NCBI GenBank assembly: GCA_016205025.1
Contig: JACQJO010000029.1
Location: 97,759-161,758 of the forward strand
Source: Elusimicrobiota bacterium
Lineage (GTDB): Bacteria > Elusimicrobiota > Elusimicrobia > JACQPE01
Direction: 5' to 3'
Length of the DNA: 64,000 bases
The translations under genes and the position numbers were made by a program. The notes beneath the pieces are model-generated. The model worked only from the letters and a program-made list of their open reading frames with translations. It did no database searches and was not told where the DNA came from. Below are positions 1,919-64,000 of the stretch, in pieces (the first letter of the stretch is position 1; each line of letters begins with the position of its first letter).

Positions 1919-2698
1919 CTATTCGCTCCTAGTGCTAGTCATGTCGATCACGGAAACATCTTTCGCAAACTGCCTATCGAATATTTTATCACTGAACTTG
2001 GCATTGGGGCGAGCATCGGAAATCCTCAAGCTTGCCTCATAATTGTTGAAAACCAACTTCAAACTCTCGGGCCGGCCGCTCGCCGCCTCGATGCCAAAAA
2101 GCAAATGATAGGGCTGCGTCGCGCTCTTCTTGGGATCAGCCCTAAGATAAACAACGCCCTGGGCGGCGCCGGAGGCCTTGGCCAGCGAAAAATGGTAACG
2201 ATCTTCAAACTTGCCCAAATCAAAAAATACCGGCAAGTCCATGAAGGCCTGTAAGTGCATCTGGCCGAAATCCTCCCACTTCCTGACCACCACCTGTCGC
2301 AAAGACTCATCAAAAAGATAGGCGGTATTTTTGTCAATCCAAAGCTTGTATTTGACCCGGCCGGAGTAATCCGCGCGCACGCGAAAATTTTTCCGGTCGA
2401 AATAAACCCGGCCGGTCAGCTTCTCTCTCTCGCCCGTGGGCGTCAAAAAAAATTCTTCGGTAAACTTAAACGTGATGCGCTCAATTTTTTCGTCGTAAGC
2501 CTTGACCTTGGCCAGGATGGAAGTCGTAGTGAGTTCAACAGAAAGCGACTGTTCTTTTTCTGCGCTACCTGGATCAGCAAAAGTCGCTAAACTCAACATA
2601 ATGACTAGGCAACAGGCACTAAGGCGATGAGGCGATGAGGCGAAAAGATGTTTTTTACTTAGTGCCTTAGTGCCTTTATGCCTCTGTGCCTTGATCAA
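1919..2698 (-). CDS. LolA-like outer-membrane lipoprotein carrier / lipoprotein-sorting protein
   Basis: 259 aa. It lies directly downstream of ftsK, matching the conserved ftsK-lolA synteny. The TTG start at 2698 overlaps the ftsK TGA stop ('TTGA'). Residues ~3-28 are encoded by the GGCACTAAG hairpin repeat at 2615..2692. An alternative ATG (M34) lies at 2597..2599. The family call is by fold/size/synteny pattern only. Confidence 0.45.
   Translation of the reverse strand: MIKAQRHKGTKALSKKHLFASSPHRLSACCLVIMLSLATFADPGSAEKEQSLSVELTTTSILAKVKAYDEKIERITFKFTEEFFLTPTGEREKLTGRVYFDRKNFRVRADYSGRVKYKLWIDKNTAYLFDESLRQVVVRKWEDFGQMHLQAFMDLPVFFDLGKFEDRYHFSLAKASGAAQGVVYLRADPKKSATQPYHLLFGIEAASGRPESLKLVFNNYEASLRISDARPNAKFSDKIFDRQFAKDVSVIDMTSTRSE
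2615..2692. repeat. Hairpin element built from GGCACTAAG / CTTAGTGCC octamer tandem repeats (copy 1 of 3)
   Basis: Sequence 'aggcactaaggcgatgaggcgatgaggcgaaaagatgttttttacttagtgccttagtgcctttatgcctctgtgcctt'. The arms are inverted copies of an 8-9 nt unit. Related copies lie at 15826..15925 and 18110..18240. Confidence 0.7.
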
Positions 2699-5401: not shown

Positions 5402-5517
5402 ACCTCCAAATCCAAAGGCTCAAAAAGTTCAAAAGTTCAAGAGGTTCAAAAGGCTAACCAAGGATTTCTTCCTTATCCTCTTGAACTTTTTTACCCTCTT
5501 AAACCTTTTGAACATTG

Positions 5518-5940
5518 CTACTCTAACAAAAATACCGCGTCCCCTTTTTTAACGTGCTTGCCGTTGACGCCCAAAACTTTAACCACTTTCCCCGCTTTCG
5601 GCGCCCGGATTTCGTTCATCACCTTCATGGCCTCGATGATGCACAAAACATCTCCCGATTTGACCGCCAAACCCTCCTCTACGAAAGGGGCGGCCGACGG
5701 CGAGGACGAGCGGTAAAAAACACCGGATAACGGGGCGTTGACAGGGGTGCCTGAAACGGGGATAAGGGGAACCGGGGATGCGGCGATACTCTCCTGCCCG
5801 CTTCCCCTCTTACCCGCTTCACCCTCTTTCTTCAGGGCTATCTTTAGCTTTTCCTGCGGGCCCAGTTCAAATTCTAAGGCCGAAACGCCAGCCGCTTTCA
5901 TGCGTTGATACAAAAGCTCCAGCCGGGTCACAAGCGACAT
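5518..5940 (-). CDS. accB: Biotin carboxyl carrier protein of acetyl-CoA carboxylase
   Basis: 140 aa. Biotinyl-lysine motif 'EAMKVMNEI' in a C-terminal lipoyl-like domain, preceded by a Pro/Ala-rich linker. Confidence 0.85.
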   Translation of the reverse strand: MSLVTRLELLYQRMKAAGVSALEFELGPQEKLKIALKKEGEAGKRGSGQESIAASPVPLIPVSGTPVNAPLSGVFYRSSSPSAAPFVEEGLAVKSGDVLCIIEAMKVMNEIRAPKAGKVVKVLGVNGKHVKKGDAVFLLE

Positions 5941-8625: not shown

Positions 8626-9585
8626 CTAGCCACCTCGCGCTATTTTTACGTCTTTCATAATTTGAGCGCGCAAGTCCTCCAAAGAACCGAACTTTTTCTC
8701 ACCGCGAATCCGGCTTAAAAGTTCCAGCGTCAATGTCCGGCCGTAGAGGTTGCCCTTAAAATCAAGAACATGGGCCTCAACAACGGGCAAAAGGGGTGAG
8801 GGGTGAGGGGTGAGGGGTGAGGTAAAAAAACGATTTTCTTTCTGACCCCTGACCCCTGACCCCTGACCCCTGACTGTTGGCCTAAATCCGATATTAACCA
8901 CGGCCAGGCGGTCAAGCTCCGGTGCGCGAGCCCGGAACACTCCTAAGGGCAAAATTTTGGCGGGGTCAATGGACAAATTGGCGGTCGCGATCCCCAACAG
9001 CCTGCGGCCGATGCCTTCCCCCCGGACTACCCGGCCTCCAATGCGGTATGGCCGGCCCAAGAGGCGATTAGCCCGCGAAACATCGCCCTCGGCCAAAAGG
9101 CCCCGAATTCTGGTTGAAGAAACGGCCAATCCGCGCCCGGTTTTCAGCCGCACCATGCGCCAGCGAAGCCCAAGAGGCCGAAGAAACCGCTGGAAACTGG
9201 TGCTGTCGCACAAGCGGTCCTTGCCGAGGGCGAAATTCTCGCCGAAAACCAAGGTGTCTGCGCGCCACAAGCCGCAAGCGTAGCGCTTCAAAAATTCCCC
9301 GGCCGAAAGATTCAATAGAGAGCGCTTAATGCCCAGCACCGCTACCTTACGAATTCCAAACTCCTCGCGCAAAATCCTGATCCTCTCTTCAACCGTGGTT
9401 AGAAGCCGCACGATCCTGGTATTGCCATACAAAAAAACACGCGGCGAGTAGGGAAAAATGGCAACCATGGGTTCCAAATTCTTTTGCCGGGCCACGCGCA
9501 AAAGACCCTCCAGCGCCTTGCGATGCCCAAGGTGCAAACCATCAAAAGTGCCGATGGTAAGCGCTCTTTTCCTTGGCTTGGTCAT
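8626..9585 (-). CDS. ribF: Bifunctional riboflavin kinase / FMN adenylyltransferase
   Basis: 319 aa. N-terminal 'TIGTFDGLHLGHR' nucleotidyltransferase motif. C-terminal riboflavin-kinase motifs 'NIGFRPT...EAHVLDF..NLYG'. An in-frame repeat insertion lies at 8796..8876. Confidence 0.9.
   Translation of the reverse strand: MTKPRKRALTIGTFDGLHLGHRKALEGLLRVARQKNLEPMVAIFPYSPRVFLYGNTRIVRLLTTVEERIRILREEFGIRKVAVLGIKRSLLNLSAGEFLKRYACGLWRADTLVFGENFALGKDRLCDSTSFQRFLRPLGLRWRMVRLKTGRGLAVSSTRIRGLLAEGDVSRANRLLGRPYRIGGRVVRGEGIGRRLLGIATANLSIDPAKILPLGVFRARAPELDRLAVVNIGFRPTVRGQGSGVRGQKENRFFTSPLTPHPSPLLPVVEAHVLDFKGNLYGRTLTLELLSRIRGEKKFGSLEDLRAQIMKDVKIARGG
8796..8876. repeat. (GGGGTGA)n ... (TGACCCC)n hairpin repeat embedded in frame in ribF
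   Basis: 'ggggtgaggggtgaggggtgagg taaaaaaacgattttctttc tgacccctgacccctgacccctgacccctga'. It encodes 'GQGSGVRGQKENRFFTSPLTPHPSPLLP' inside the riboflavin-kinase domain. The ribF reading frame is kept. Confidence 0.75.
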
Positions 9586-10043
9586 TGGTGCGCCAATCCA
9601 AATTTTCTTTGCGCCGAGATGCGGCTGATCACGTCGCCAAACTCCGGATTCTTGTTAAGGAGATACTCAAAATCCTGGGAAAGAAGAGTGAATATCTTGG
9701 ATTCTTTGCCGGCAACGGCGCTGGCCAGACGAGGAGCTTTTTCCCAAAGCGCCATTTCGCCAAAAATTTGGCCCGGACCAAGGCAGGCGATCTCTCTGGA
9801 AAAAAATAGGAACGCTTTTTTTCGAATAACAATTTCTCCTTCATAAACTACGAATAGGGCGTCGCCACCGTCCCCTTCTTTGAATAGGGTGTGGCCGCGG
9901 CCGCATCGAAACAGCCCGAACGAGGGAATAACTTTTTCTAATTGCCCGGTCGTCATGCCGCCAAAAAAATGGATTTTCGCGAGGGTGGACAAAAGCCACT
10001 TCTGGTCGGAAGGTCCGATATTTAATTGTTCCAGCTTAGGCAT
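9582..10043 (-). CDS. Cyclic-nucleotide-binding domain protein (stand-alone cNMP-binding domain)
   Basis: 153 aa with the cNMP-binding signature 'FGEMALW...A.A'. The stop overlaps the ribF start. Confidence 0.65.
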   Translation of the reverse strand: MPKLEQLNIGPSDQKWLLSTLAKIHFFGGMTTGQLEKVIPSFGLFRCGRGHTLFKEGDGGDALFVVYEGEIVIRKKAFLFFSREIACLGPGQIFGEMALWEKAPRLASAVAGKESKIFTLLSQDFEYLLNKNPEFGDVISRISAQRKFGLAHQ

Positions 10044-10746
10044 AGTTTACGCTAGCCATTAAATTTTTGGATATATCCTGAAGACGTAAACCGTCGTCGC
10101 AATGATACGGTCCGACCGAAACCCGCGTTAATGAAGCGAGGTAAGCCCCGGTGCCCAAGGCCCGTCCAAAATCGCGCGCCAACGCCCGAATATAACAACC
10201 CTTGCCGACTTTGGCCTCGAATGAGAAAGAAGGTGAACAAAGTGAGAAAGGTGAACAAGGTTCGATTATTTTAAACTCATATACTTGCACCTTACGAGCC
10301 AACGGCTGAACCATTTGACCTCTACGGGCAAGCTCATAGAGGCGCTTGCCGCCCCAATGAAGCGCCGAATAAACCGGGGGTTCCTGCTCAATTTCACCTA
10401 GAAAACTTTCCGCTATTCTCTGGAAATCATCTTCTCGAACTTTTATCACCTTGTTCACCTTGCTCACCTTTCTCACCTTCCCCGTCAGGTCATCCGTATC
10501 TCTTTCCTCCCCCAGCGCGATCGTGCCGCGGTAAACCTTTGGCATATCCATTAGCTGCCCTGACAATTTTGTGGCTTTGCCCAAAAGAATCAACAACACG
10601 CCCTCGGCAAAAGGATCCAACGTGCCGGCATGGCCTATTTTCGATAAGGAGATAAGGTCCTCTCGCCTCATCGTTCTTTTAATGTGCCTGATCACGTCAT
10701 ACGACGTGATCCCGGCGGGCTTGTAAACGTTAAGGATGCCATCCAT
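10036..10746 (-). CDS. truB: tRNA pseudouridine(55) synthase
   Basis: 236 aa 'NVYKPAGITSYDVIRHIKR...GHAGTLDPFAEGVLLILLGKATK'. The catalytic Asp lies in 'GTLDP'. The gene contains a pair of internal inverted repeats (10221..10262 and 10446..10481). Confidence 0.9.
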   Translation of the reverse strand: MDGILNVYKPAGITSYDVIRHIKRTMRREDLISLSKIGHAGTLDPFAEGVLLILLGKATKLSGQLMDMPKVYRGTIALGEERDTDDLTGKVRKVSKVNKVIKVREDDFQRIAESFLGEIEQEPPVYSALHWGGKRLYELARRGQMVQPLARKVQVYEFKIIEPCSPFSLCSPSFSFEAKVGKGCYIRALARDFGRALGTGAYLASLTRVSVGPYHCDDGLRLQDISKNLMASVNYA

Positions 10747-11767: not shown

Positions 11768-11773
11768 GGATAA

Positions 11774-11862
11774 ATGCGGGAAAGGCGGTAGATGCGGGAA
11801 AGGCGGTAAAAAAAATGAAAGGAAACTCCTTGCCCTTCACCGCTTTCTCCGCCTTTACCGCT
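11774..11862. repeat. ~90-nt hairpin element (GCGGGAAAGGCGG ... CCGCCTTTCCCGC), copy 1, in the nrnA-rbfA gap
   Basis: 'gcgggaaaggcggtagatgcgggaaaggcggtaaaaaaaatgaaaggaaactccttgcccttcaccgctttctccgcctttaccgc'. It is nearly identical to copy 2 at 12296..12390. Confidence 0.75.
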
Positions 11863-11872
11863 TTTTCCTTTA

Positions 11873-12286
11873 TCATTTTTTATGGCGTTTCCCCTTGGAA
11901 CTCTTCACCACAGCGCTGCCTTCGTTGGCATGCAGGCTATTGAGTATCTGCAGTACCCTATCCGCCGATTCCATGGAGTTGTCATAAATAAAACTCAAGC
12001 GCGGCAACCGCTTGATCGTTAACCGTTTTTTGAGCTCCCGCGTGATTTCAGGCTCCAAATCTTCCAGGGCTTGTTGGGCCAAATCAGCGTTTTGCGGGTC
12101 GGATGAAACAGCGGTCCAGGAATATCTGACGATCGCTTTTTCTAAATTTCTGGCCACCTCAACGCGCGTAATGGTGAGCAAAATGGAGCCGGCTGTCTCA
12201 AAAATTTTCTCGCGATGATCTTCCAAAATTCTGGAAATCTCATTGCGCATCAAGGCCTCAACGCGAGAAATTCGGTCGGGAAACAT
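11873..12286 (-). CDS. rbfA: Ribosome-binding factor A
   Basis: 137 aa 'ISRVEALMRNEISRILE...ILLTITRVEVARNLEKAIVRYS'. It sits in the conserved infB-rbfA-truB position. Confidence 0.8.
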   Translation of the reverse strand: MFPDRISRVEALMRNEISRILEDHREKIFETAGSILLTITRVEVARNLEKAIVRYSWTAVSSDPQNADLAQQALEDLEPEITRELKKRLTIKRLPRLSFIYDNSMESADRVLQILNSLHANEGSAVVKSSKGKRHKK

Positions 12287-12295
12287 TTTAAAAAA

Positions 12296-12390
12296 ATGCG
12301 GGAAAGGCGGTAGATGCGGGAAAGGCGGTAAAAAAAATGAAAGGAAATTCCTTGCCCTTCCCCGCCTTCACCGCCTTCCCCGCCTTTCCG
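12296..12390. repeat. ~90-nt hairpin element copy 2, in the infB-rbfA gap (direct repeat of 11774..11862)
   Basis: 'gcgggaaaggcggtagatgcgggaaaggcggtaaaaaaaatgaaaggaaattccttgcccttccccgccttcaccgccttccccgcctttccg'. Confidence 0.75.
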
Positions 12391-14547: not shown

Positions 14548-14548
14548 G

Positions 14549-15847
14549 TTATGCGGTCTGTCCTTCTTCCGAAATTTTTTCTTTCTCCTCAACGGCCGCT
14601 TTAATTTTTTTCGCCTTAACTTTCTTTTTCCCTTCGGAAGCCGCCGCCGTTTCTGCTTGCGCCGCCTCTTCTTGTTTGGATTTCTCCTGTTCTCCCCCAG
14701 CATCCAGCATCGAGCATCCAGCATCCTCTTCTTTTTTCTCCACCCCTCCAGCATCCAGCATCGAGCATCCAGCATCTTCTTTCTTCACCGCTTCCACCGT
14801 GATGTTCCATCCGGTCAACTCCGAGGTCAGCTTCAAATTCAAACCATCTTTGCCGATCGCTCCCGCCAGCTGGTCCTGCTCAACAAAAACGCGCGCCGTC
14901 TTTTTTTCGGTATCCTCGACCTCCACCTTAGACACCTTGGCCGGCGCCAAGGCCGCCGCGATCATGCCTTCGGTGTTGTCTCCCGACAAAACAAGGTCAA
15001 TCTTCTCTCCATGCAGCTCGTTGATCACCGGGCGGATGCGCGTTCCCTTGATGCCCACGCAGGCGCCGACAGGATCAACCCTGGGATCGTTGGATTTGAT
15101 CAGCACCTTGCTTCGAAACGCCGGCTCGCGAACCACTTTCAAGATCTCGACCGTCCCGTCATGAACTTCCGGAACCTCAAGGCGCAAAAGGCCCTGCACG
15201 AACCCGGGAGCGCTTCGGGAAAGATAAACCTGCGGCCCCCTAAGATCCAGCTCCACCGAATGCACCAGGGCTTTCAAAGGCTGGCCGATGGAAAACCTTT
15301 CGCCCGGAATTTGTTCCTCTTTTTTTAAAATGGCCTCGATTTTGCCCAAACTGACATAAACAGTTTTGTCATGGCCGACGCGATAAACGGAACCCGTAAT
15401 CACCAGGTTCTCCTTCTTTTTGAAATCCTTGAAAAGATTTTCTTTTTCAACCTCGCGTAGTTTCTGCAGGATCACCTGCTTGGCGGTTTGGGCCGCGATT
15501 CTGGAAAACTCCATGGTGTCAACCGCCACCGGCACGTCTTCATCAACCTTCACCGCCGGATTGATTTTTTTAGCCGCCTCAAGAGAAATTTCGGCCAAAG
15601 GATCGCTGACCTGTTCCACCGCTTTTTTCAAAATAGCGGCTTTGGTTTCTCCGGTCTCGCCATCCATCGTAGCTTGAACCGGAATCTCGCGGCCCATGTG
15701 CTTGACCAGCGCGGAAGCCACCGCCCCTTCGATCAAGCGTAAAATCTCCTGGCGGGGAATGCCCTTGTCCCGCTCGATGGTCTCTAAAAGCAAAACAAAC
15801 TCGGTTTTGGAAGTCATAAATAGTGAGGCACTGAGGCACTGAGGCAC
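14549..15847 (-). CDS. nusA: Transcription termination/antitermination factor NusA
   Basis: NusA N-terminal, S1 and KH domains, with an acidic/Lys-rich C-terminal tail. The probable true start is 'MTSKTEF' at 15817. The ORF extension to 15847 runs into the hairpin repeat. The C-terminus contains a ~45-bp direct repeat (14697..14787) encoding 'EDAGCSMLDAGG' twice. Confidence 0.9.
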   Translation of the reverse strand: MPQCLSASLFMTSKTEFVLLLETIERDKGIPRQEILRLIEGAVASALVKHMGREIPVQATMDGETGETKAAILKKAVEQVSDPLAEISLEAAKKINPAVKVDEDVPVAVDTMEFSRIAAQTAKQVILQKLREVEKENLFKDFKKKENLVITGSVYRVGHDKTVYVSLGKIEAILKKEEQIPGERFSIGQPLKALVHSVELDLRGPQVYLSRSAPGFVQGLLRLEVPEVHDGTVEILKVVREPAFRSKVLIKSNDPRVDPVGACVGIKGTRIRPVINELHGEKIDLVLSGDNTEGMIAAALAPAKVSKVEVEDTEKKTARVFVEQDQLAGAIGKDGLNLKLTSELTGWNITVEAVKKEDAGCSMLDAGGVEKKEEDAGCSMLDAGGEQEKSKQEEAAQAETAAASEGKKKVKAKKIKAAVEEKEKISEEGQTA

Positions 15848-15925
15848 TGAGGCACTGAGTGAAAAAGAACAATTCTTCTTAGTGCCTTAGTGCCTAAGTG
15901 CCTATTTGCCTCTCTCTGTGCCTTG
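15826..15925. repeat. GGCACTGAG/AGTGCCTTA octamer hairpin element (copy 2 of 3), in the rimP-nusA intergenic region
   Basis: 'gaggcactgaggcactgaggcactgaggcactgagtgaaaaagaacaattcttcttagtgccttagtgcctaagtgcctatttgcctctctctgtgcctt'. Confidence 0.75.
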
Positions 15926-16482: not shown

Positions 16483-18312
16483 TTATTGCGCCGACAGGCG
16501 CGCGCGATCCATCGGGTGGGGCAGAGTATTTTGAAGAATCATCTCTTCGGCAAGTTTTAAAATCTTATTTTGGGCCTGCAAAATCCGTTCAACGGGCGGC
16601 CGCCCCACGGTGACGAGGTACTCCTGCAAAATCTGGCTTGTTTTCTTGGGCAGGGAGTGAAAAATTTTATCCTTTAAGCCGGGGTCCGACAGGCCGTCTG
16701 AAATCGCTATGGCCAATTCATGAATCTGCACGCGCGAGAGAAGCATGTTTAACTCCTGCTCCGACCAATAGGTTATATCCCCAAAAAGCAAAACCTTGCC
16801 GCGCACGATCCGGTAAAGATTGGCGTCTTGGCTTTCGATCGTTTTAAGCATTTTCTCGCGCAACAGCAGATCAACGGCGTTTAACGTGTTGACAATTTCC
16901 TGCGCGCCGCCGACGACCCCGGCGATGCGGTGCTCCAGTTCCTCTTTCAGGCGCTCCATTAATTCCGTTTCCACCATTTGAGGCTCAGCCATCGCCTTGA
17001 TGACCTCTCCCAAGCGCTCGGATGGGAACTGCTCCAAGAACGCCTTTTTAGTGGCGACCGGAAGGCGGGCTACCACCAGGGCGATGTGGTTCGGATTTTC
17101 CTGCCCGATCAAGTGATAAAGGTCGGCCACGCGCGCCGGCGCGATCTTAATCTCCGCTTCGCCCGGCGCTTCGCTTTTTTGAGCGGCCATTTCGATTAAT
17201 TTTTCATCTCCGGCGCCGCCCGGCAACTCGTCTTCCCCCTCCTTGTCCTTGGCCATCCTTCCCTCAAGGTAAGCCCGCAGTTTATCCGGAAACTCAAATT
17301 TCACCTCGATGCTTTTTTGCCTGGCGGCTGAAAAAGCCACCACCCATTGCGCCAAAACTCCCACCAAGGAACGCCAAGTAATCAAAGCCAAAAACGTGGT
17401 GGCAACCAAGCCGATGATCAGAATAATCCCGATCGTGCCCCACTGAAGCACGGTGCCCAAAACCTTGGAATCCTTCAATAACTCCATGAAAGGATTGGGC
17501 ATGCTGAATCGCGTCACGACCAAACGGTCCCCCCGAGCCGCGTCCAGCGTTAAAAATGACCCGATCAAGGTCTGCACCTTCGCCTCGGCGTCCGCCGGCA
17601 AAGAATAATCCAGGGCGACCTTGACGAAAACGGATTTAACCTCCAGGCCCACCGCGTAAAGAAAATTGGGGTCCGAGAAAGGGTAACGCCCATCCGCCGC
17701 CTTCCTGGAACCCGGCGGCGCGCCGCCGGTTGGAACCGAAACCCCGGTCCCCACGGCCGAAAACCCGGGCAGGATAAAGGTGTCGGTTCCGGAGGCCTGG
17801 GGATCGCCGCTGTCCGCTATGCCCGGAAAAAGCCATTTATAACTGGAAGGATTTTCAGCTCCGGCATCGTCTGCCGGCGCGTCCTTGGCTGTCCGGCCTA
17901 ACTGGCCGGACAAATAAGCCGAAAGGCTGTTTTGCAATTCTTCCTTGAGTTTTAACGAAAACCCGACGTCCACATGCACGAAAACCTCGGCGTTTCCGGT
18001 GCCGAACGTTTTATCCAGGTGCTCCTGAATTTTATTCTTAAGATCACGCGACAGGTAGCTGGAAGCCTGAACAATCGCGCCTCCGGGCTCCAGGGGAAAG
18101 GCGAATGGAGGAAAGGCACTAAGGCACAAAGGCACTAAGGCACTAAGAATAACAGCTCTTCTTAGCTTAGCGCCTAAGTGCCTTTTTGCCCCAGTGCCCA
18201 AGTGCCTAAGTGCCTCTATGCCTATCTTGCCCTTTATCACTTTTTCCCCTTTTAGATTAATCCCAAAACCCCCCCCGCGCAACCCCCAACACCAAAAAGT
18301 AGGGACAGACAC
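16483..18312 (-). CDS. Membrane protein with a C-terminal FliG-like (FliG middle/C-terminal, MgtE-N-like) domain, possibly a FliF/FliG-like fusion
   Basis: 609 aa. The C-terminal ~250 aa align by eye with FliG. One TM helix 'IGIILIIGLVATTFLALITW' lies mid-protein. The N-terminal aa ~24-67 are encoded by hairpin repeat 18110..18240, and the start codon is uncertain. Confidence 0.45.
   Translation of the reverse strand: MSVPTFWCWGLRGGGFGINLKGEKVIKGKIGIEALRHLGTGAKRHLGAKLRRAVILSALVPLCLSAFPPFAFPLEPGGAIVQASSYLSRDLKNKIQEHLDKTFGTGNAEVFVHVDVGFSLKLKEELQNSLSAYLSGQLGRTAKDAPADDAGAENPSSYKWLFPGIADSGDPQASGTDTFILPGFSAVGTGVSVPTGGAPPGSRKAADGRYPFSDPNFLYAVGLEVKSVFVKVALDYSLPADAEAKVQTLIGSFLTLDAARGDRLVVTRFSMPNPFMELLKDSKVLGTVLQWGTIGIILIIGLVATTFLALITWRSLVGVLAQWVVAFSAARQKSIEVKFEFPDKLRAYLEGRMAKDKEGEDELPGGAGDEKLIEMAAQKSEAPGEAEIKIAPARVADLYHLIGQENPNHIALVVARLPVATKKAFLEQFPSERLGEVIKAMAEPQMVETELMERLKEELEHRIAGVVGGAQEIVNTLNAVDLLLREKMLKTIESQDANLYRIVRGKVLLFGDITYWSEQELNMLLSRVQIHELAIAISDGLSDPGLKDKIFHSLPKKTSQILQEYLVTVGRPPVERILQAQNKILKLAEEMILQNTLPHPMDRARLSAQ
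18110..18240. repeat. GGCACTAAG/CTTAGTGCC octamer hairpin element (copy 3 of 3)
   Basis: 'ggaaaggcactaaggcacaaaggcactaaggcactaagaataacagctcttcttagcttagcgcctaagtgcctttttgccccagtgcccaagtgcctaagtgcctctatgcct'. In the FliG-like ORF frame it encodes 'RRAVILSALVPLCLSAFPPFAFP' (signal-peptide-like). Confidence 0.75.
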
Positions 18313-18717: not shown

Positions 18718-18989
18718 GTGAAACGGTTACGCTTCTAAGAATTAAATCCGGCTATGTGCCGGCGGCCCGTTTTGCCCAAGACATTATTCCAGCGCTGCAT
18801 ATCGCCGCCATCGATGAATCGCTGCGCCGGGAAGCCTTAAACATATTTCTGCGATTCGCCCGGGATAAGAAGCTTTCTTTTTGCGACTGTCTTTCCTACG
18901 CGGCCCTGACAACCATTTTGCGCGGCCTGCCGGCGGCCACCTTTGACCGGCATTTCAAGATGCTCGGCCTACCCCTCCTTGACGGATAA
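18634..18989 (+). pseudogene. PIN-domain (VapC-like) toxin remnant lacking its own start codon and first catalytic Asp
   Basis: The frame is open from the TAA at ~18631. 'AAIDESL...LSFCDCLSYAALTTILRGLPAATFDRHF' matches the PIN C-terminal acidic motifs. The position aligned to the first catalytic Asp reads Ser ('WEILSETV'). There is no ATG/GTG/TTG until the GTG at 18756. An A8 homopolymer lies at the frame junction with the antitoxin. Confidence 0.45.
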
Positions 18990-19769
18990 ATAGGGACAGA
19001 CACTATTTATTAGAAAATAAATAGTGTCTGTCCCTATTTATTAAAACGGGACGTCCCCTGATCTTGGGGGTTAAGTCCTTCTGCAGAACCTGCTCCATGC
19101 GGCTAATAAACTCTTCTTTTCCCGTGGGGCGGCCACGATGAGTGGCGTGGCGAATGCCGCTTAAAAATCGCGCATCTTCTTCGTCAGTCAAATAATCTGA
19201 CCAGTTTGGTATCTCCTCCAATAAAGGACAATAGGAAAGAATGGGGTTGGGTATTTTGGAAATATGAGCCTTGGCGCTCGACCAAAAATATTCTTCCGCT
19301 TTTATAACAAGTCCGGCACGCACCGGATTTCTTTCAACATAACGAACTGCCGCATAGGTATACTGCTCATCTAAAACACTAGAAAAAAATCGGCCTTGCC
19401 AGAGATGTCCGCTCCGTTTGGCCTTAGCGTTAAAGTACAAGGCATAGGTAGCGTGAAGAGAAGCCATGGTTTTTGCTATCGAATTTTGATTTTCAGGCAC
19501 AACAATAAAATGTACGTGATTGGTCATTAAACAGTAAGCCCAAATCTTCAGACCAAACTTCTGCGAGCATTCTTTTAACCCACCAAGATAAAATCTTCTA
19601 TCCTGATCATCAAGAAAAACATTTTCTTTATTGTTTCCCCTCTGCGTAACATGGTGAGGCAAGTCAGGCACGACAACTCTCGCATCTCTGGGCATGGAAA
19701 AATAGTACAAAATAATAAATAGGGACAGACACTATTTATTAGAAAATAAATAGTGTCTGTCCCTATTTA
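18988..19769 (-). mobile_element. IS200/IS605-family (RAYT-like) tyrosine transposase unit flanked by family-1 perfect palindromes
   Basis: Palindromes 'aaatagggacagacactatttatt agaa aataaatagtgtctgtccctattt' at 18988..19040 and the same at 19716..19769 bracket the tnpA ORF. Confidence 0.8.
19003..19710 (-). CDS. tnpA: IS200-like / REP-associated tyrosine transposase (HuH Y1)
   Basis: 235 aa. HuH motif 'TNHVHFIV' and a C-terminal catalytic-Tyr region 'YVERNPVRAGLV'. 'MPRDARVVVPDLPHHVTQRGN' is the probable true start (M6). Confidence 0.8.
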   Translation of the reverse strand: MYYFSMPRDARVVVPDLPHHVTQRGNNKENVFLDDQDRRFYLGGLKECSQKFGLKIWAYCLMTNHVHFIVVPENQNSIAKTMASLHATYALYFNAKAKRSGHLWQGRFFSSVLDEQYTYAAVRYVERNPVRAGLVIKAEEYFWSSAKAHISKIPNPILSYCPLLEEIPNWSDYLTDEEDARFLSGIRHATHRGRPTGKEEFISRMEQVLQKDLTPKIRGRPVLINRDRHYLFSNK

Positions 19770-21724
19770 TTGGAAGCGGTGCAGGAATTCGGAAAGGGCT
19801 TTGTTGTCGGGGTTGATCTCAAGGGATTTTTTCCACATTTCGAAGGCCTTGTCGCGAATGCCGAGCGCGAAGTAGGAAGAACCCAGCCGCTCGTAGGCCA
19901 AGGCGTTGTTGGGGTCCAGCTTAATGGCGTCTTCGCAGGCTTTGGTGGCCATTTCGAATCGGCCCTGTCTAAAGAAGCGATCCGCCTCCTGAAGCTTGGC
20001 GATGATGTTGACGCGCGGCGGCAACAGCGGCTTGGTTTTTTCCTCCGCGCGGCCGGATTCCTCTACCATGGTTTCGAAGATGCGCCGGGTGATCTCGTCT
20101 CCCGGATCCTCCGCCATGGCCTGGCGCATCAATAAAATGGCGCCGTCTAAATTGGCCTCGATATAGTCGGACAACCCGCGCAGCATATAGGTATATTTTC
20201 TCTTCAACTCGGAAGGCGCGTCTTCGGACGGCTTTTTCATTTCCTCGGTCGTCAACCGCAGCCAGCCGATCACCTTCTCGGCGCGCGAACGGCGCACCCC
20301 GACCACCTGGTCCGTGGGATTGGTGGCCAATGACTTATCCATCAACCGCGCGGCCTCAAGGAACCGCCCGGCCCGGTAAGCTTCCTGCGAATGGTCCAGG
20401 TAACCCTGCGACAAGCTCTTTCTCTCGCGCACCTTACTGCCGCCCAGCCACACCCCGACCGAAAACCGGCTGGAGTTGCCCAGTTCATGCATCATCATGG
20501 CGTAATCAAGCTGGACGTTGCCGTATCTCATGCCCAGGCCTCCGGAAGCGGCGTTGGTCCCGCCCATGCCCAAGCGCAGAGCGGCCGGCCCCAACCCGTA
20601 CTCCAAGCCCACCCTGGTCACCGCGCCAACCTGCTCAAACTGGCTCGAAACCTTAAGCGCTCCTTCGAATAGTCCGTAGCTGGCGCCCAAAACAACATTT
20701 AAGGGCAGTTCGTCTTCGGTGCCCACTCCGGTAAACAGCACGTCGCGCAGAACCAACCCTATTTCCCCATGTTTAAACGCCTGATAATCCATGGCCATAT
20801 CAAGAGAGGCCAATGATGACGACGCGCCCGGCAGGCTTCGGGTCAAATACTTTCCGGAGGCGCCAAAAGAAAAGGAGGAGCCGAACCGGTTGCCGTACGA
20901 TAAACCCAAGCCTTGGCTCATAAAACTGTAATCGCCCACCAAATTGTTATTGTCATCCCTTTGCTCAACAGCCCCGATGCCAAGGCGCACCACCGAAAGC
21001 CCCACGGTACCGGCCGACAGCATGGGATAAGCCCACCCCGCGTAATCGTAAGTGGCGCCCTCAAACAAACCCGCGTGCAGGAAGTTAAAATTCATTCTCT
21101 CAAGATAAGACAACCGCGCCGGGTTCCAGTAACCGGCCGTGGCGTCTTCGGCCATGACGATGGAGGCGTTGCCGAGACCCAGGGAACGAGCGCCGGCTCC
21201 AAAAGTCCAAATATCGCCAGCTCCGCCCCCTAACTCTTTACCAAAAGAGTTAGGGGGAAAGGCGACAGAGGCCAAAAAGGCCACGGAGGCCAAAGACGCT
21301 ATAATAAAATTGTGGCAAAGACGTTCAAGGATCTTATTGTTTGGAAAGAGGCTAAATTGTTGGTCCACAGCATTTACCGACAAACATCCGGTTTTCCTAA
21401 AGAAGAAACTTATGGACTTATCTCCCAAATGCGCAGAGCAGCGCTTTCCGTTCCCAGCAATATTGCCGAAGGCTGGGGTTCGCATTCTACGGACAAACAA
21501 TTTCTTCAATATCTCAACAACGCCAGCGGCAGTCTTGCGGAACTCGAATCGCATATCGCCATTGCTGCCGATGAAGGTTTTCTTGCTAGCGCGCACAAAA
21601 ACCAACTTGAAGACCAAGTGAAACGCATAAGCTATCTCATAAACCGTTTTAGAGATCGCCTTAATTAAGATTACCATCGCCTCTATGGCCTCTTTGGCGT
21701 CTTTCGCGTCTTTCGCCTTTCTCA

Positions 21725-21725
<1 letters not shown>
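19767..21725 (-). CDS. Outer-membrane beta-barrel protein of the FadL/PorV-like type with C-terminal TPR repeats (5' end uncertain)
   Basis: The N-terminal mature region 'GAGARSLGLGNASIVMAEDATAGYWNPARLSYL' matches the FadL/PorV 'NPA' motif family. A Gly/Tyr/Ser-rich alternating-strand region of ~300 aa follows. The C-terminal ~200 aa carry TPR repeats ('AYERLGSSYFALGIRDKAFEMWKKSLEINPDN'). The first ~140 codons of the ORF overlap the opposite-strand four-helix-bundle gene and a repeat arm. The hydrophobic 'ASLASVAFLASVAF' stretch is encoded by repeat 21258..21300. Confidence 0.6.
21226..21300. repeat. Left inverted-repeat arm plus a hairpin flanking four-helix-bundle cassette 1
   Basis: Hairpin 'ccccctaactctttaccaaaagagttaggggg' (21226..21257). 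It is followed by 'aaaggcgacagaggccaaaaaggccacggaggccaaagacgc', which is inverted relative to 21683..21722 ('ggcctctttggcgtctttcgcgtctttcgcctttctc'). Confidence 0.7.
21312..21668 (+). CDS. Four-helix-bundle protein (TIGR02436 / '23S rRNA intervening-sequence protein' family; Avd-like fold)
   Basis: 118 aa. 'FKDLIVWKEAKLLVHSIYRQTSGFPKEETYGLISQMRRAALSVPSNIAEGWGSHSTDKQFLQYLNNASGSLAELESHIAIAADEGF' matches the family hallmarks (DL.VWqkA...iy.lt..FPkeE.ygL.sQ.rRAa.Si.sNIAEG.gr....e...fl.iA.GSl.El.t.l). Confidence 0.85.
   Translation: MAKTFKDLIVWKEAKLLVHSIYRQTSGFPKEETYGLISQMRRAALSVPSNIAEGWGSHSTDKQFLQYLNNASGSLAELESHIAIAADEGFLASAHKNQLEDQVKRISYLINRFRDRLN
21683..21722. repeat. Right inverted-repeat arm of four-helix-bundle cassette 1 (tandem GCGTCTTTC units)
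   Basis: 'ggcctctttggcgtctttcgcgtctttcgcctttctc'. It lies between the 4HB stop and the giant-gene stop. Confidence 0.7.
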
Positions 21726-59344
<37,619 letters not shown>

Positions 59345-59352
59345 CTGTTCAC

Positions 59353-60013: not shown

Positions 60014-60072
60014 AAAAAATGGTACCAGGTACCAAATGGGCACTAATGCCCATTTGGTACCTGGTACCATTT
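60014..60072. repeat. Family-2 palindrome, copy c, at the 5' end of transposase 2, preceded by a truncated extra arm at 59995..60010
   Basis: 'aaaaaatggtaccaggtaccaaatgggcactaatgcccatttggtacctggtaccatttgtg'. Confidence 0.85.
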
Positions 60073-60789
60073 GTGCATTTGTGCTTAAATCCAATAGTTA
60101 TGCCAAGACACCCAAGAATAGAAATGCCTGGAGGTTTTTACCACGTTCTGAACCGTGGCAACAACAAGCAAGCATTGTTTCGTAATGCGGGTGACTACGT
60201 ATTCTTCTTAAACCTATTGGAAACTGCTTCTAAAAAATGGCCCTTTAAGGTGCACGCTTATTGCCTAATGCCCAATCATTACCATCTCTTTATGGAAACC
60301 ACAGAAGGACACTTATCGCGCCCGCTGCATCTTGTTAACAGAGCCTACGCCGCTTATTTTGCTAGAAAATACGAATTTACTGGACACGTATTCCAAGGAA
60401 GATTTAAATCGCTCATGGTTGAAAAAGAAGGCTATCTTTTAACTCTTTCTAGATACATCCACCTTAATCCCATCAAAGCCAAGCTGGCACAAAAACTGGA
60501 AGATTATTCCTACTCCAGCTATGCCTGCTTCATGGGACTTAGATCAAAGCCGAACTGGCTGGATATCGAAACCACGCTAAGCTACTTCGGATCAACAAGC
60601 ATACTCCAGCAAGAACAGTACAAGCTTTTCGTGTTAAGCGAGATGTTCGAATTGCAAAACGAACCTTTTTATCAAGCCGCCGATGATGTGCTGGAAGGAA
60701 AATCCAAAGCGCTCATGAGATTAAAAAAGGTACTCCACTTAAAAACAGCGCCTAGCACCGCAACGGAAAATAAGGTACTAATTAATTAA
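60019..60789 (+). CDS. tnpA: IS200-like / REP-associated tyrosine transposase (second copy; probable true start ATG 60100)
   Basis: 'MPRHPRIEMPGGFYHVLNRGN...CLMPNHYHLFMET...GHVFQGRFKS...SRYIHLNPIKAKL'. It carries the HuH motif and a catalytic Tyr region. It has the same architecture as 19003..19710 but diverged sequence. The N-terminal 27 codons of the maximal ORF are translated palindrome. Confidence 0.8.
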   Translation: MVPGTKWALMPIWYLVPFVHLCLNPIVMPRHPRIEMPGGFYHVLNRGNNKQALFRNAGDYVFFLNLLETASKKWPFKVHAYCLMPNHYHLFMETTEGHLSRPLHLVNRAYAAYFARKYEFTGHVFQGRFKSLMVEKEGYLLTLSRYIHLNPIKAKLAQKLEDYSYSSYACFMGLRSKPNWLDIETTLSYFGSTSILQQEQYKLFVLSEMFELQNEPFYQAADDVLEGKSKALMRLKKVLHLKTAPSTATENKVLIN

Positions 60790-61692: not shown

Positions 61693-61738
61693 AAGTAGGT
61701 AGTAAAAAAAGTAGGTAGTAGATAGTAGGTAGTAGGTA
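61693..61738. repeat. (GTAGGTAGTAG)n left inverted-repeat arm of four-helix-bundle cassette 2
   Basis: 'gtaggtagtaaaaaaagtaggtagtagatagtaggtagtaggtagg'. It is the inverse of 62152..62182 'cctacctactacctactacctactacctact'. Confidence 0.75.
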
Positions 61739-61767
61739 GGGGAGGGGAAAGGGTAGGGGAAACAAAA

Positions 61768-62144
61768 ATGTTGACAACGGAACTGAAAACTGCAAAGGCC
61801 CAATGTTTTGAAGATTTGATTGTATGGCAGAAGGCTCATCAAGCCGTCCTTTATATATACAAACTGACAAAAAATTTTCCTTCCGATGAACGCTACAACT
61901 GGTTTCGCAAATGCGTAGGGCCGCCGTATCCGTAGCCGCCAATATTGCCGAAGGTTTCAAAAAGAGATCAACAAAAGATAAAAGTAATTTCTACAATATC
62001 GCCCAAGGTTCTCTTGAGGAGTTGCGTTATTATTTGTTGCTTTCAAGAGATTTGGGGTATATTGGTGACAACGAACTTCTGTCTAACCAAATGGACGAGG
62101 TCGGGCGGATGCTTAACGGTTTAATTGCTTCCCTTAAATCCTAG
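61768..62144 (+). pseudogene. Four-helix-bundle protein gene (TIGR02436 family), frameshifted
   Basis: The N-terminus 'MLTTELKTAKAQCFEDLIVWQKAHQAVLYIYKLTKNFPSDERYN' is in one frame. The C-terminus 'LVSQMRRAAVSVAANIAEGFKKRSTKDKSNFYNIAQGSLEELRYYLLLSRDLGYIGD...' is in the +1 frame. A single missing base lies near 61893 ('tacaac|tggtt' where 'tacaacctggtt' is expected). This is a pseudogene or a sequencing error. Confidence 0.6.
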
Positions 62145-63390
62145 TCGCTCTTCCCTACCTACTACCTACTACCTACTACCTACTATCCTTCTTCTTGCCA
62201 GTTGCTCTCATCTCCCCTCGCGCAAGGCGTCTGATTCCTGGACTGTCCGCGATTTAGTCCAAACCTCCGAAGAAGTTCGTCCCCTCGCTTGCGCGTTCGA
62301 TCAGACGGGCCAACTTCGTGTTATCTACGCCGCCAGGGAAAAGATGTTTCACGTGGCTGCGCCTGAAGGGTTTAGCGCGGGGGGGTTGCCCGAAACGCTT
62401 CCTTTTTCGGCTCCCCCGTCCAGAACGCCGGCCAGTCTGATTTTTGACGCCCAAAACCGCGCTCATTTTTTTTATCAGGGAAAAAACGGCTTGCATTACG
62501 CTATCCGTCAAAACGAAGGGTGGATTTTGGCTCTCCTGACCGACCATTTAAGAAACGGGGCTTCCTGGCAAACTTTTTTTGACAGCCAAAATGTTCCCAC
62601 CATTATTTTCGAGCACAGGGAAAACTTTCTGGCTGTGACAAAACCGACAACGGCCGGCTGGCGGGAACTGCGCTTGCCCCTGTCGGACAAAAACGAACCG
62701 GGGCGCATCGTCTGTTCAACCGCCAAGCTGGATGCCGAGCACAAGCGGCTCCACTTCGCGGCGATTCGAGAAAAAAACAAAAAGGCCCATCTTTGGTACG
62801 CGGCGGCCAATATCACCAATTACCCGCAAAGAACCGTCTCGGCCCCGACAGGCATCCAAGAGATGCTCTCAACGGACGGGGTTTGGGAAGAAACTTTTTC
62901 TCTTTTTGAATTTAAGGTCAATTCAATCGGCGGCTGTACTGTTAATCTCGGCAATGATTTACCCGGCAGTATTCACTTCACCTGGGTGGACTGGGCCAAA
63001 AAACAATGGACCGGAAAGGAACATCTTCGATTCGGCCGCTACGATAAGGAATGGAAAATCAAAACCTTAGAAAAAAATATCGCCTCTGGAAACCGGGGGC
63101 TTGTTTTCGCGCGGGATTCAAACGGCACGGATCAATTCGATCTTGTTGTTTTTAATCCCACGACGCAGGTTTTGCGTTACCTTGCTTTAGACGAAGAAGG
63201 GGCGATGCGGGAAAAAGGAACGATTCCTTTCTTGTCCGGCGCGCCGCCCTGCCTGGCTTTGAAAAAGGGAACCCCGCAAGTGGGGCGAGGGAAAAAAGAT
63301 GTGGGTAACAGTAAGCCTGGTGGAGGGGCGTGGATCGTGGTTAGTCAGAAGGAAGGACTGAAAGCTTTCGTTGAGAACGCACGGCCTTAG
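62125..63390 (+). CDS. Hypothetical lipoprotein
   Basis: 421 aa with a TTG start. Signal peptide with lipobox 'ILLLAS|C'. No recognisable catalytic motifs. Confidence 0.5.
   Translation: MLPLNPSRSSLPTTYYLLPTILLLASCSHLPSRKASDSWTVRDLVQTSEEVRPLACAFDQTGQLRVIYAAREKMFHVAAPEGFSAGGLPETLPFSAPPSRTPASLIFDAQNRAHFFYQGKNGLHYAIRQNEGWILALLTDHLRNGASWQTFFDSQNVPTIIFEHRENFLAVTKPTTAGWRELRLPLSDKNEPGRIVCSTAKLDAEHKRLHFAAIREKNKKAHLWYAAANITNYPQRTVSAPTGIQEMLSTDGVWEETFSLFEFKVNSIGGCTVNLGNDLPGSIHFTWVDWAKKQWTGKEHLRFGRYDKEWKIKTLEKNIASGNRGLVFARDSNGTDQFDLVVFNPTTQVLRYLALDEEGAMREKGTIPFLSGAPPCLALKKGTPQVGRGKKDVGNSKPGGGAWIVVSQKEGLKAFVENARP
62152..62182. repeat. (CTACCTACTAC)n right inverted-repeat arm of four-helix-bundle cassette 2, lying within the N-terminal coding region of the downstream lipoprotein gene
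   Basis: 'cctacctactacctactacctactacctact'. It encodes 'LPTTYYLLPT' of the predicted lipoprotein signal peptide. Confidence 0.75.
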
Positions 63391-64000
63391 CCAGAATCTG
63401 GGCCGTTTGATCCAAATCTTCCAAGCTGGTATCCCGCCCAAAAGAAAAACGCAGGCTCCCCCGGCTCCACTTGTCTTCCAAACCCATGGCGGCAAGCACG
63501 CGCGAGGCTTTGGTCACTCCCGAAGCGCAGGCGCTTCCGGTTGAAACCAAAACGCCCTCCAAATCAAGCGCGATCATTAAATTCTTTCCCTCCAGGCCGG
63601 CGAAGGAAACGTGCGTGGTGTTGGCAACTCGAAATTCGCGATGCCCGTTAAAACGTGCGTCTTCGATTAAACCCGCAATTTTTTCTTCGAATGAACGGCG
63701 CAAGGATGCCAAATGACTCATAAAGCCCGGCAGTTCTTTAACCGCCAATTCCAACGCCGCGCCCAGCCCAACGGCGAAAGCGACGTTTTGGGTTCCGGCG
63801 CGCAGGCCGCCTTCCTGATGGCCGGGGAATAGGGGGCGAGGGGGTGATGAGGCGAGGGGGTGATGAGGTGATAAGGTGGTCGCCTTATCAATCCATAACG
63901 CTCCTATCCCCTTGGGACCGCCGATTTTGTGACCCGAGATCGCCACGGTTGTGGCTCCTAAATCTTGAACCGAGAAAGGTATTTTACCCGCGGCCTGCAC
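63341..64000 (-). CDS. Cysteine desulfurase (IscS/NifS family), C-terminal part; the gene continues beyond the window end
   Basis: PLP-lysine region 'SGHKIGGPKGIGALWI' and 'GGLRAGTQNV'. An in-frame ~16-aa insertion 'TTLSPHHPLASSPPRP' is encoded by the tandem repeat 'gagggggtgatgaggcgagggggtgatgagg' plus the palindrome 'tgataaggtggtcgccttatca' (63836..63892). Confidence 0.8.
   Translation of the reverse strand: MQAAGKIPFSVQDLGATTVAISGHKIGGPKGIGALWIDKATTLSPHHPLASSPPRPLFPGHQEGGLRAGTQNVAFAVGLGAALELAVKELPGFMSHLASLRRSFEEKIAGLIEDARFNGHREFRVANTTHVSFAGLEGKNLMIALDLEGVLVSTGSACASGVTKASRVLAAMGLEDKWSRGSLRFSFGRDTSLEDLDQTAQILAKAVRSQRKLSVLPSD

Follow-up and report, generated by a model that had tools for sequence, protein, structure and literature searches.

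The ribF gene and its hairpin

The subject of this analysis is an 81-nt hairpin, built from tandem heptamers, that lies in frame within ribF in a 64,000-nt stretch of DNA (hereafter the window; contig JACQJO010000029.1, positions 97,759 to 161,758) from GCA_016205025.1, a metagenome-assembled genome of an uncultured groundwater Elusimicrobia bacterium. The gene and the element occupy the following positions:

8626..9585, minus strand: ribF (FAD synthetase / riboflavin kinase), host of the element (Pfam PF06574 and PF01687, alignment, AlphaFold (AF2) model)
8793..8873, no strand assigned: ribF array hairpin (E3), 81 nt (sequence, Tandem Repeats Finder (TRF), fold, alignment, AF2 model)

On the plus strand the element consists of a purine arm, (GGGGTGA)4GG (8793-8822), a 20-nt A/T spacer, TAAAAAAACGATTTTCTTTC (8823-8842), and a pyrimidine arm, (TGACCCC)4TGA (8843-8873), the two arms pairing at six of the seven positions of each unit. 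A first-pass annotation of the sequence had described an in-frame 81-nt hairpin in the riboflavin-kinase domain, which is what we find, except that its first arm holds four units rather than three and begins 3 nt further to the left. The hairpin folds with -51.1 kcal/mol in the mRNA sense (z=-6.65) and with -28.7 kcal/mol as DNA (z=-7.07), and in neither case did any of 200 shuffled sequences fold as well. The pattern GGGGTSAGGGGTSAGGGG has 7 matches where 0.01 are expected, and on both strands the element fits the layout G4-N3-G4-N3-G4-N3-G4, making it a candidate G-quadruplex.

The element is translated from the minus strand, in frame, as VRGQGSGVRGQKENRFFTSPLTPHPSPL, and falls within the Flavokinase domain assigned by Pfam to residues 176-317. 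In an alignment with 13 homologues, the RPT and VEAH motifs are separated by 31 residues in the window protein and by 9-12 in the others, while all 39 of the 39 invariant RibF columns are retained; the closest RibF (55% identity) is missing the insert. The AlphaFold model has a mean predicted local distance difference test score (pLDDT) of 87 and matches FAD synthetases (e.g. 2x0k) with a template-modelling score of about 0.8. Within it, residues 242-261 fall below a pLDDT of 50 and are flanked by strands 226-233 and 268-273, consistent with the earlier proposal that the insertion occupies a permissive loop. The segment is a lineage-specific, in-frame addition that the model places in a surface turn between two riboflavin-kinase strands, and for the insert itself a disordered loop is predicted. 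With 27 codons the element is longer than the net gain of RibF, which is about 20 residues. In two of the homologues (P0007 and P0009), an earlier kinase-domain loop holds another lineage-specific insertion (e.g. SPLSPPIKGG, QKKYFHNSQLTTHDS), which may be a further permissive site.

A dispersed family of GGGGTSA hairpins

Contigs from Joint Genome Institute metagenomes were scanned for the architecture (GGGGTSA)3-N10-40-(TSACCCC)3, revealing 64 matching loci, mostly from soil and permafrost. Together with the ribF copy these make 65 elements, in which four units is the commonest arm size (33 left and 36 right arms). The median spacer of the metagenome hairpins is 21 nt, its ends often reading AAGA...TCTT as in ribF, and runs of A and T in the flanks often lengthen the palindrome. 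Fifty of the 64 metagenome copies are closed in all six frames and are non-coding.

Four loci (L132, L147, L160 and L166) have in common an element of 76-97 nt that is 96-99% identical, its non-repetitive 30-nt spacer included, and nothing else, their flanks being unrelated. This likeness indicates dispersal rather than independent local origin. Change within a locus is also seen: the orthologous loci L127 and L163, with flanks 80% identical, have 3/3 and 4/4 units with perfect arms, and L136 and L139 (81% identical) have identical arms with differing spacers.

At least five independent copies lie in frame in other real enzymes. They occur inside NIR_SIR (nitrite/sulfite reductase), Topoisom_bac (topoisomerase I) and Pkinase (Ser/Thr kinase) domains, at loci L130, L172 and L141 respectively, in a GH57 protein and just N-terminal of a methyltransferase domain, and the peptide of the coding copies takes the form GVRGQGSGV...LTPDPSPLT. 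Among genome contigs, at least 119 array loci from many phyla, including isolate genomes, match AGGCACTNAGGCACTNAG; no locus from the genome of the window was among the matches listed. A profile search of 5.8 billion proteins with the insert peptide and its flanks matched only spurious or fragmentary open reading frames (ORFs) of 42-88 aa, and GGGGTCAGGGGTCA and related strings (GGGGTCA/GGGGTGA dimers) had zero occurrences in the literature searched.

Two further arrangements were noted among these loci. Several copies (L136, L139, L149, L152, L155, L157, L159, L175 and L183) present a GGGGTCA hairpin followed directly by TGGAGCGAAGCGAC and then an ATG, before different genes; the element could be carrying TGGAGCGAAGCGAC along as a common leader or ribosome-binding region. 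Three loci from Thermodesulfobacteriota / Desulfobacterales (L011, L037 and L066) read (AGGCACTA)n, TTTTTTAA, (ACCTTATA)n, that is, a purine array followed by a pyrimidine array that is not complementary to it; the purine-then-pyrimidine layout therefore does not always form a hairpin.

Stop codons in the coding copies

Arrays of three or more units of the form (TGACCCC)n or (GGGGTGA)n place TGA in all three frames. The one open arrangement is (GGGGTCA)n...(TCACCCC)n, in which every changed unit is mismatched. In ribF the arm read second is (TCACCCC)4 rather than (TGACCCC)4, so that the gene is free of stops in frame; since the change from TGA to TCA breaks the complementarity of the arms, each unit of the stem bears a mismatch, which in the mRNA hairpin is C-C every 7 bp. 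The same distinction holds across the family: the centre of the unit is mismatched in 7/8 coding copies and in 5/57 non-coding copies (Fisher p=8e-6; 3e-5 with duplicate loci collapsed), and in the remaining 52/57 non-coding copies it is perfectly complementary. L130 and L172 carry a single TCA exactly at the in-frame position, while in ribF, L137 and L173 the entire arm is TCACCCC.

The periodic, one-mismatch-per-unit stem of ribF is, as read from these sequences, a trace left by selection that kept the reading frame open, and the homogeneity of its arm suggests turnover of the array after the change. That selection had preserved the frame was already claimed in the first-pass annotation, and the TGA-to-TCA changes bear this out. 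They provide a sequence-level mark of selection acting on intragenic selfish DNA, paid for in stem pairing. A frame common to all the coding copies was considered and rejected: because 7 and 3 have no common factor, a 7-nt unit yields one and the same cyclic heptapeptide in whichever frame it is read, and a shared peptide is therefore uninformative on the choice of frame.

The coding copies also bear on whether the ribF insert could be an adaptation, a new Gly/Ser/Pro-rich linker loop recruited for enzyme function or regulation. It adjoins the strand with an invariant Glu (E270 in the alignment numbering), and its frame has been kept open. However, essentially the same peptide is found in unrelated enzymes and is set by the DNA repeat, the insert is missing from all 13 aligned homologues, and disorder is predicted for it, so that we consider such recruitment very improbable. 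It is hardly credible that the repeats are an artefact of assembly or sequencing. The genome does derive from short reads, from which hairpins and tandem repeats assemble poorly; yet the frame and the conserved residues resume on both sides of the insert, the same types of element appear in many independent assemblies, isolate genomes among them, and the purging of stop codons is a biological signature.

Array hairpins across the window

The first-pass impression of a genome saturated with short repeats holds for the window. TRF reports about 30 arrays that have a period of 7-9 and about four copies each, and a strict array detector finds 15, as against 0 in each of 10 shuffles. These include about ten inverted array pairs, built from units of various 7-9-nt sequences and situated mostly at operon junctions, and on whichever strand a pair is read, its purine-rich array precedes the other (10/10 pairs; binomial p=0.002). 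Seven of the pairs form tight hairpins, whose spacers of 13-27 nt are A-rich then T-rich; five of them (E1, E2, E4, E5 and E6) lie at intergenic junctions, E3 is the ribF element, and E7 falls in a FliG-like ORF. Besides E3 they are:

2612..2692, no strand assigned: hairpin E1, AGGCAC family, 8-mers, ftsK / LolA-like junction (TRF, fold)
5420..5509, no strand assigned: hairpin E2, 8-9-mers, BCCP-like / DUF2582 junction (TRF, fold)
11772..11868, no strand assigned: hairpin E4, 9-mers, rbfA / DHH junction, paralogue of E5 (TRF, fold)
12294..12386, no strand assigned: hairpin E5, infB / rbfA junction (TRF, fold)
15824..15903, no strand assigned: hairpin E6, (TGAGGCAC)4.5 / (CTTAGTGC)3.2, rimP / nusA junction (TRF, fold)
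18113..18224, no strand assigned: hairpin E7, AGGCAC family, 5' part of the FliG-like ORF, whose 5' end is uncertain (TRF, fold)

E4 and E5, which stand on either side of rbfA, are nearly identical in purine arm and spacer. The array hairpins fold with -25 to -62 kcal/mol on either strand; a preference for one RNA strand was sought in G-U wobbles and dropped, the folds of E1-E8 being split between plus and minus with no consistent signal. The window is about 96% coding, and much of its 2.7 kb of non-coding DNA consists of array elements: five of the seven tight hairpins, as well as both PF05635 cassettes described below, lie there. The normal home of the array-hairpin families is this roughly 4% of non-coding DNA at operon junctions.

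Most of the junctions belong to a minus-strand gene cluster assigned by Pfam as rimP-nusA-infB-rbfA-DHH phosphoesterase-truB-(cNMP-binding gene)-ribF-rpsO-pnp-BCCP-like-DUF2582-ftsK. The nearest available relative, GCA_016180815.1 (locus L001; 55% identity in RibF, 71% in NusA, 66% in InfB), has the same gene order, with genes that abut or overlap and orthologous junctions of 0-13 nt, and its syntenic locus contains no 7-9-nt arrays. This comparison suggests that the array hairpins were gained in the lineage of the window. Rfam has 0 matches in the window, which contains no rRNA, and a scan for intrinsic terminators flagged palindromes of the repetitive extragenic palindromic (REP) type and passed over the array hairpins, whose loops are too long for it.

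The elements also disturb gene calling, giving rise to spurious ORF extensions (at the N-termini of infB, nusA, a TPR gene and the second of two transposase genes) and to short fake proteins in databases. The infB ORF (12394-14775) overlaps nusA by about 226 nt through a long, spurious N-terminal extension; the GTG start of the nusA ORF (14549-15847) lies inside hairpin E6, an ATG at 15817 being the likelier start; and the called start of the TPR gene (ORF 19767-21725) is antisense to a PF05635 cassette and gives it a false N-terminus. Both rbfA (11873-11881) and infB (12394-12402) end in AAATGATAA, a double stop, directly before E4 and E5. The idea that these hairpins supply stops that truncate rbfA or infB was abandoned, the RbfA C-terminus being intact by comparison with L001. 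Between truB and ribF, which overlap directly in L001, the window has a gene for a 153-aa protein with a cyclic-nucleotide-binding domain (9582-10043, minus strand). In L001 itself the cysteine desulfurase is called as two overlapping ORFs (2798-3843; 103 and 255 aa), which suggests a frameshift or an error.

Cassettes carrying PF05635 genes

Of the three wide pairs of inverted arrays in the window, two enclose genes of PF05635, the family of 23S-rRNA-intervening-sequence proteins (S23p), which form an Avd-like four-helix bundle:

21257..21721, plus strand: long-form cassette 1, purine 9-mer array (21257-21307), PF05635 gene (21312..21668, 118 aa), pyrimidine array (21671-21721) (Pfam, inverted repeats)
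61710..62184, plus strand: long-form cassette 2, (AGTAGGT)n (61710-61744), frameshifted PF05635 gene (61768..62144), (CTACCTA)n (62150-62184) (Pfam, inverted repeats)

The Pfam matches are strong (E=1.2e-33 for 21312..21668 and E=6e-23 for 61911..62144), and the arms, of 46 nt and 35 nt, lie 5-23 nt from the ends of the PF05635 ORFs; around 21312..21668 the first array stops 5 nt short of the gene and the second begins 3 nt beyond it. The second gene (61768-62144) has a 1-nt frameshift near 61900-61935 and is a pseudogene or reflects a sequencing error.

Array-flanked PF05635 genes are likewise found in SAR324, Chloroflexia and Balneolaceae, among the array loci from other phyla. We sampled 14 PF05635 genes from several phyla, eight of them added through homologues, and compared them with 391 random controls. 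Flanking inverted repeats exceeded the 95th percentile of the controls in 12/14 genes and the control maximum in 8/14; the arms had a 7-9-nt periodicity, and the 5' arm was purine-rich in 12/12. The sampled genes sit between co-directional operon genes, including an ABC ATPase/permease pair and, three times, sdhA and sdhB. These last three are different PF05635 proteins on Bacteroidota-like contigs (L195, L205 and L209), which makes the site a conserved position or else a hot spot.

The short hairpins and the long cassettes share units. The closest PF05635 homologue, from another Elusimicrobiota (L189), is accompanied by related AAGGCGA units, and there a short form stands next to a long form built of the same units; AGGCACTN units make up short forms in the window and in Chloroflexales, and in SAR324 and Chloroflexia they make up long forms. 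This class of element can be diagnosed by a purine array and a pyrimidine array that enclose either a short A/T spacer or a PF05635 gene. Upstream of one sampled PF05635 gene (L201, 1880-1990) lies a tight hairpin of opposite polarity, (CAGTTTT)3...(AACTGAG)2, with its T-rich arm first and with units resembling the TAACTGA heptamer of Beggiatoaceae. As regards diversity-generating retroelements, no reverse transcriptase was present among the Pfam-screened ORFs of the window or in the gene lists of the sampled PF05635 loci.

Transposase genes, their palindromes and the giant gene

Two genes for RAYT-like Y1 transposases, 35% identical to each other, lie at 19003..19710 (minus strand) and 60019..60789 (plus strand). 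Their matches to NF047646, at 72-73 bits, fall just short of its cut-off of 80, and both show HUH and Y..NP motifs. On either side of the first stand 58-nt perfect palindromes with the core TAGGGACAGACAC (18986-19771), and three AAAATGGTACCAGGTACCAAATGG palindromes (GGTACC) lie upstream of the second (59270-60789).

These genes might be the source of mobility for the array hairpins, which would then be REP/REPIN-type elements mobilised by the two RAYTs of the window. Each transposase gene does lie 1-1.5 kb or less from a PF05635 cassette, and GTAG, a tag of REP elements, occurs within the AGTAGGT and AGTAGAT arrays. Yet the transposase genes are bordered or preceded by palindromes of their own and not by tandem arrays, no homologue of theirs is encoded in any of the fetched array loci, and the array hairpins have no conserved tag. 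We judge mobilisation by these enzymes improbable; the two transposases, each with its own palindrome family, form ordinary REP/RAYT systems that are separate from the array hairpins.

The TAGGGACAGACAC core recurs in a giant gene, a single ORF of 12,539 codons (21725-59344, minus strand) that contains internal repeats, about 150 and 300 nt long, and together with its neighbours separates iscS from rimP by about 47 kb; the two genes are adjacent in L001. Perfect 55-61-nt palindromes with the core TAGGGACAGACAC, as at the transposase gene 19003..19710, lie in frame at 28620-28674, 29925-29985, 37320-37380 and 48546-48606 and encode SGKIGTDTNCxTIGVCPYFSC. All four sit in homologous repeat modules (flanks RDAxxNE...YGPxYPQDN), with differences between copies mirrored in both arms; they could represent one insertion copied by module duplication, or site-specific insertion. 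The AAAATGGTACCAGGTACCAAATGG palindromes cause spurious N-terminal extensions (MVPGTKW...) on both the second transposase gene and the giant ORF.

Arrays in other protein genes

Several other genes of the window bear repeats within their coding sequence:

10229..10261, no strand assigned: truB array, purine-rich on the plus strand, (NNAAGGTGA)x4, minus-strand peptide SPFSLCSPSFSF (TRF, alignments)
10448..10480, no strand assigned: truB array, pyrimidine-rich on the plus strand, inverted copy, minus-strand peptide KVRKVSKVNKVIKV (TRF, alignments)
14697..14776, minus strand: nusA C-terminal tail, two direct (GATGCTG)x4 arrays at 14697-14726 and 14747-14776 (TRF, alignment)
63831..63892, minus strand: IscS-like gene, 8-mer array and remnant of a 7-bp mini-hairpin (TRF, fold, alignment)
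5797..5828, minus strand: BCCP-like (biotin-lipoyl) gene 5518..5940, in-frame 8-mer array in the linker, encoding KKEGEAGKRGSGQE (TRF)
57217..57247, minus strand: giant gene, solo arm (GGGGTCA/GGGGTTA)x4, peptide QGSGVRGQGLV (pattern scan)

The insertions that the first-pass annotation had seen in four genes fare differently on alignment. The segments in ribF, the IscS-like gene and the NusA tail are missing from the closest homologues, in keeping with lineage-specific insertion. The IscS-like array and palindrome form the in-frame insertion proposed, which amounts to 11 residues relative to the closest homologue and lies immediately before RPLFPGHQEGGLRAGTQN; about 17 codons are repeat-derived against this net gain of 11, and the insertion resembles a hairpin of which one arm is largely gone. 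In both ribF and the IscS-like gene the element is longer than the net gain, and 'insertion' is therefore partly 'replacement'. The terminal repeat of nusA is real (44 nt, 14703-14789, 2.0 copies), although at 83% identity it is less than the perfect repeat described; each copy contains a (CCAGCAT)x4.3 array according to TRF, and the arrays encode EDAGCSMLDAGG twice, adding about 32 residues relative to the closest NusA (L001).

In truB, the two arrays are indeed in frame and mutually inverted, with four 9-mers of NNAAGGTGA in each 33-nt arm, 88% complementarity and 186 nt between them. They are not, however, insertions into conserved regions: they fall in variable segments that flank the conserved PPxYSA core, where the length differs by 0 and +1 residues from that of the closest TruB (by +1 to +6 from solved TruBs). 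Given that loss of an arm is visible in the IscS-like gene and that solo arms occur in the giant gene, we tentatively regard the truB pair as single-arm remnants of two hairpins of one family. The giant-gene array, in which the ribF heptamer had been reported, is on the plus strand a (TAACCCC/TGACCCC)x4 mixture whose unit is related to that of ribF, and it has one arm only. The array in the BCCP-like linker is a coding case additional to those first noted. Coding copies, in the window and in the metagenomes, point out loops that naturally tolerate insertion in RibF, IscS, topoisomerase I, sulfite/nitrite reductase and protein kinases.

Origin of the ribF element

The 81-nt segment of ribF is probably a copy of a dispersed palindromic array-hairpin family, inserted in frame and tolerated as a passenger. 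Each member of the family comprises a purine-rich array of about four 7-nt units, a short A-rich/T-rich spacer and a complementary pyrimidine-rich array. The ribF copy would have entered a loop, with the loss of some original loop residues, and selection would have retained only an in-frame, stop-free form, as a passenger and not an adaptation. The short hairpins may be the cargo-less form of cassettes resembling intervening sequences, of which the long form carries a PF05635 (S23p/Avd-like) gene. By analogy with rRNA intervening sequences, their transcribed stems of about 30 bp, with predicted folds of -36 to -62 kcal/mol, could be substrates of RNase III; cleavage would be harmless between cistrons and costly inside a gene, where the mismatches of the coding copies might protect by blunting cleavage.

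Several observations weigh against this account. No empty-site allele or strain polymorphism was found, the ribF protein is represented by a single database record (locus tag HY401_04400, 100% identity), and the window contains only one GGGGTSA hairpin. Of the features of miniature inverted-repeat transposable elements, the 64 metagenome copies have the inverted arms and no recognisable target-site duplication, and no mobility enzyme was identified for the array hairpins. All four units of the ribF arm are TCA, though just one or two in-frame TGAs needed to change. The net gain of RibF (about 20 aa) falls short of the element (27 aa), and the truB arrays add almost nothing, so that growth in situ or replacement fits these genes as well as insertion does. 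In other genomes the AGGCACTN arrays are mostly solo and unpaired. Finally, no PF05635 cassette with GGGGTSA arrays was present among the loci examined, and we infer the link between short and long forms from architecture and shared units rather than from demonstrated mobilisation.

Many of these same points favour an origin in situ, in which a short seed expands by replication slippage and is shaped by hairpin-templated correction or ectopic gene conversion without transposition, similar units reflecting a shared mutational bias. To the missing target-site duplications, the numerous solo arrays, the homogenised ribF arm, the unchanged length of truB and the small gains in ribF and the IscS-like gene can be added that units vary by locus and that copy number shifts at orthologous loci (3/3 and 4/4). 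We nevertheless find such an origin unlikely. It is at odds with the 96-99% identical elements whose 30-nt non-repetitive spacer recurs in unrelated flanks, with the likeness of E4 and E5 in arm and spacer, with the recurrence of the same units across phyla, and with arrays that travel with PF05635 genes, as in the related AAGGCGA units of the closest homologue. Telomerase-like addition to both ends of a break had also been considered for the polarity and arm mismatches, and was dropped on the evidence of metagenome copies that show mirrored variant units in their two arms.

Beyond dispersal and insertion of the ribF element, a wider generalisation may be entertained, with some reserve. Inverted 7-9-nt arrays with the purine-rich arm first might be the terminal repeats of a widespread class of selfish cassettes with PF05635 cargo; 23S rRNA intervening sequences would then be no more than those members that had inserted into rRNA, and ribF-type hairpins miniature derivatives that invade operon junctions and, with their stops purged, enzyme genes in many phyla.

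Relation to known systems

In Xanthomonas, GGGAATC arrays favour a length of four units; they make up 70-75 convergent pairs, lie intergenically between aligned ORFs and fold into quadruplexes in vitro (Rehm et al. 2015, PMC4692102). The arrays of the window resemble these and other G-rich heptamers of that study (Xanthomonas GGGAATC, Nostoc GGGGAYT) in their G-tracts of at least three, the favoured four units, the frequent convergent stem-loop pairs with the G-rich arm first, their position between co-directional ORFs, their scarcity in coding regions and, judged here from sequence, a potential for G-quadruplexes or i-motifs. The ribF copy is the coding exception to such intergenic placement. 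They differ in that the ribF unit, GGGGTSA, departs from the consensus GGGNATC/GGGGAYT, in that the genome of the window uses many other 7-9-nt units, most of them without G-tracts, and in the in-frame copies in conserved enzymes with purged stops; an association with PF05635 is unreported in PMC4692102.

The intervening sequence in the 23S rRNA of Coxiella contains an S23p ORF, and the inverted repeats at its borders pair into a 28-bp stem, which RNase III cleaves (Warrier et al. 2016, PMC4990558). Purine-rich tandem heptamers, variable in number among strains, precede its ORF, and the element is seen as selfish (PMC4990558). The cassettes of the window share with the intervening sequences of Coxiella and Leptospira a PF05635 ORF between terminal inverted repeats and a long stem, the ORF being present in the two long cassettes only and not in the ribF element. 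Unlike intervening sequences, the cassettes and hairpins occupy operon junctions and protein genes rather than helices 25 or 45 of 23S rRNA, and an element inside a protein gene is translated, not excised. Beyond the Coxiella case, we found no link in the literature searched between PF05635 genes and heptamer arrays.

In its behaviour the ribF element, a palindromic piece of selfish DNA in frame in a conserved gene, is like the palindromic elements of Rickettsia. These, which Ogata and colleagues are said to have described in Science in 2000, reportedly lie in frame in protein genes, including housekeeping genes, and add a surface peptide while function is kept. The likeness drawn here is one of behaviour; the Rickettsia elements are about 100-150 bp long, follow a family consensus, have no tandem-array arms and are confined to Rickettsia. 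REP/REPIN elements are likewise short, multicopy extragenic palindromes at operon junctions. The array hairpins differ from them in their tandem-repeat arms and variable units, and they do not flank RAYT genes, a feature found instead in the TAGGGACAGACAC and GGTACC palindrome families of the window; no GTAG/CGTC tag is present in the array hairpins, whose ends are partial units (A-GGGG...CCCC-T).

The direct TAACTGA repeats of Beggiatoaceae have a patchy distribution across phyla (MacGregor 2015, PMC4679880). Like these and the short tandemly repeated repetitive (STRR) sequences of cyanobacteria, the arrays of the window are intergenic tandem heptamers, in 2-6 copies, with a patchy distribution suggesting horizontal spread. 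STRR and TAACTGA repeats are mainly direct arrays just upstream of start codons, whereas the typical form in the window is an inverted pair, with some copies coding. The comparison offers a lead on the nature of heptamer arrays in cyanobacteria, Xanthomonas and Beggiatoa, and another on orphan S23p/Avd-like genes and rRNA intervening sequences. Inverted pairs of heptamer arrays and selfish elements of the intervening-sequence/S23p kind are already known; what is new here is the stop-purging signature and the breadth of the association between PF05635 genes and arrays.

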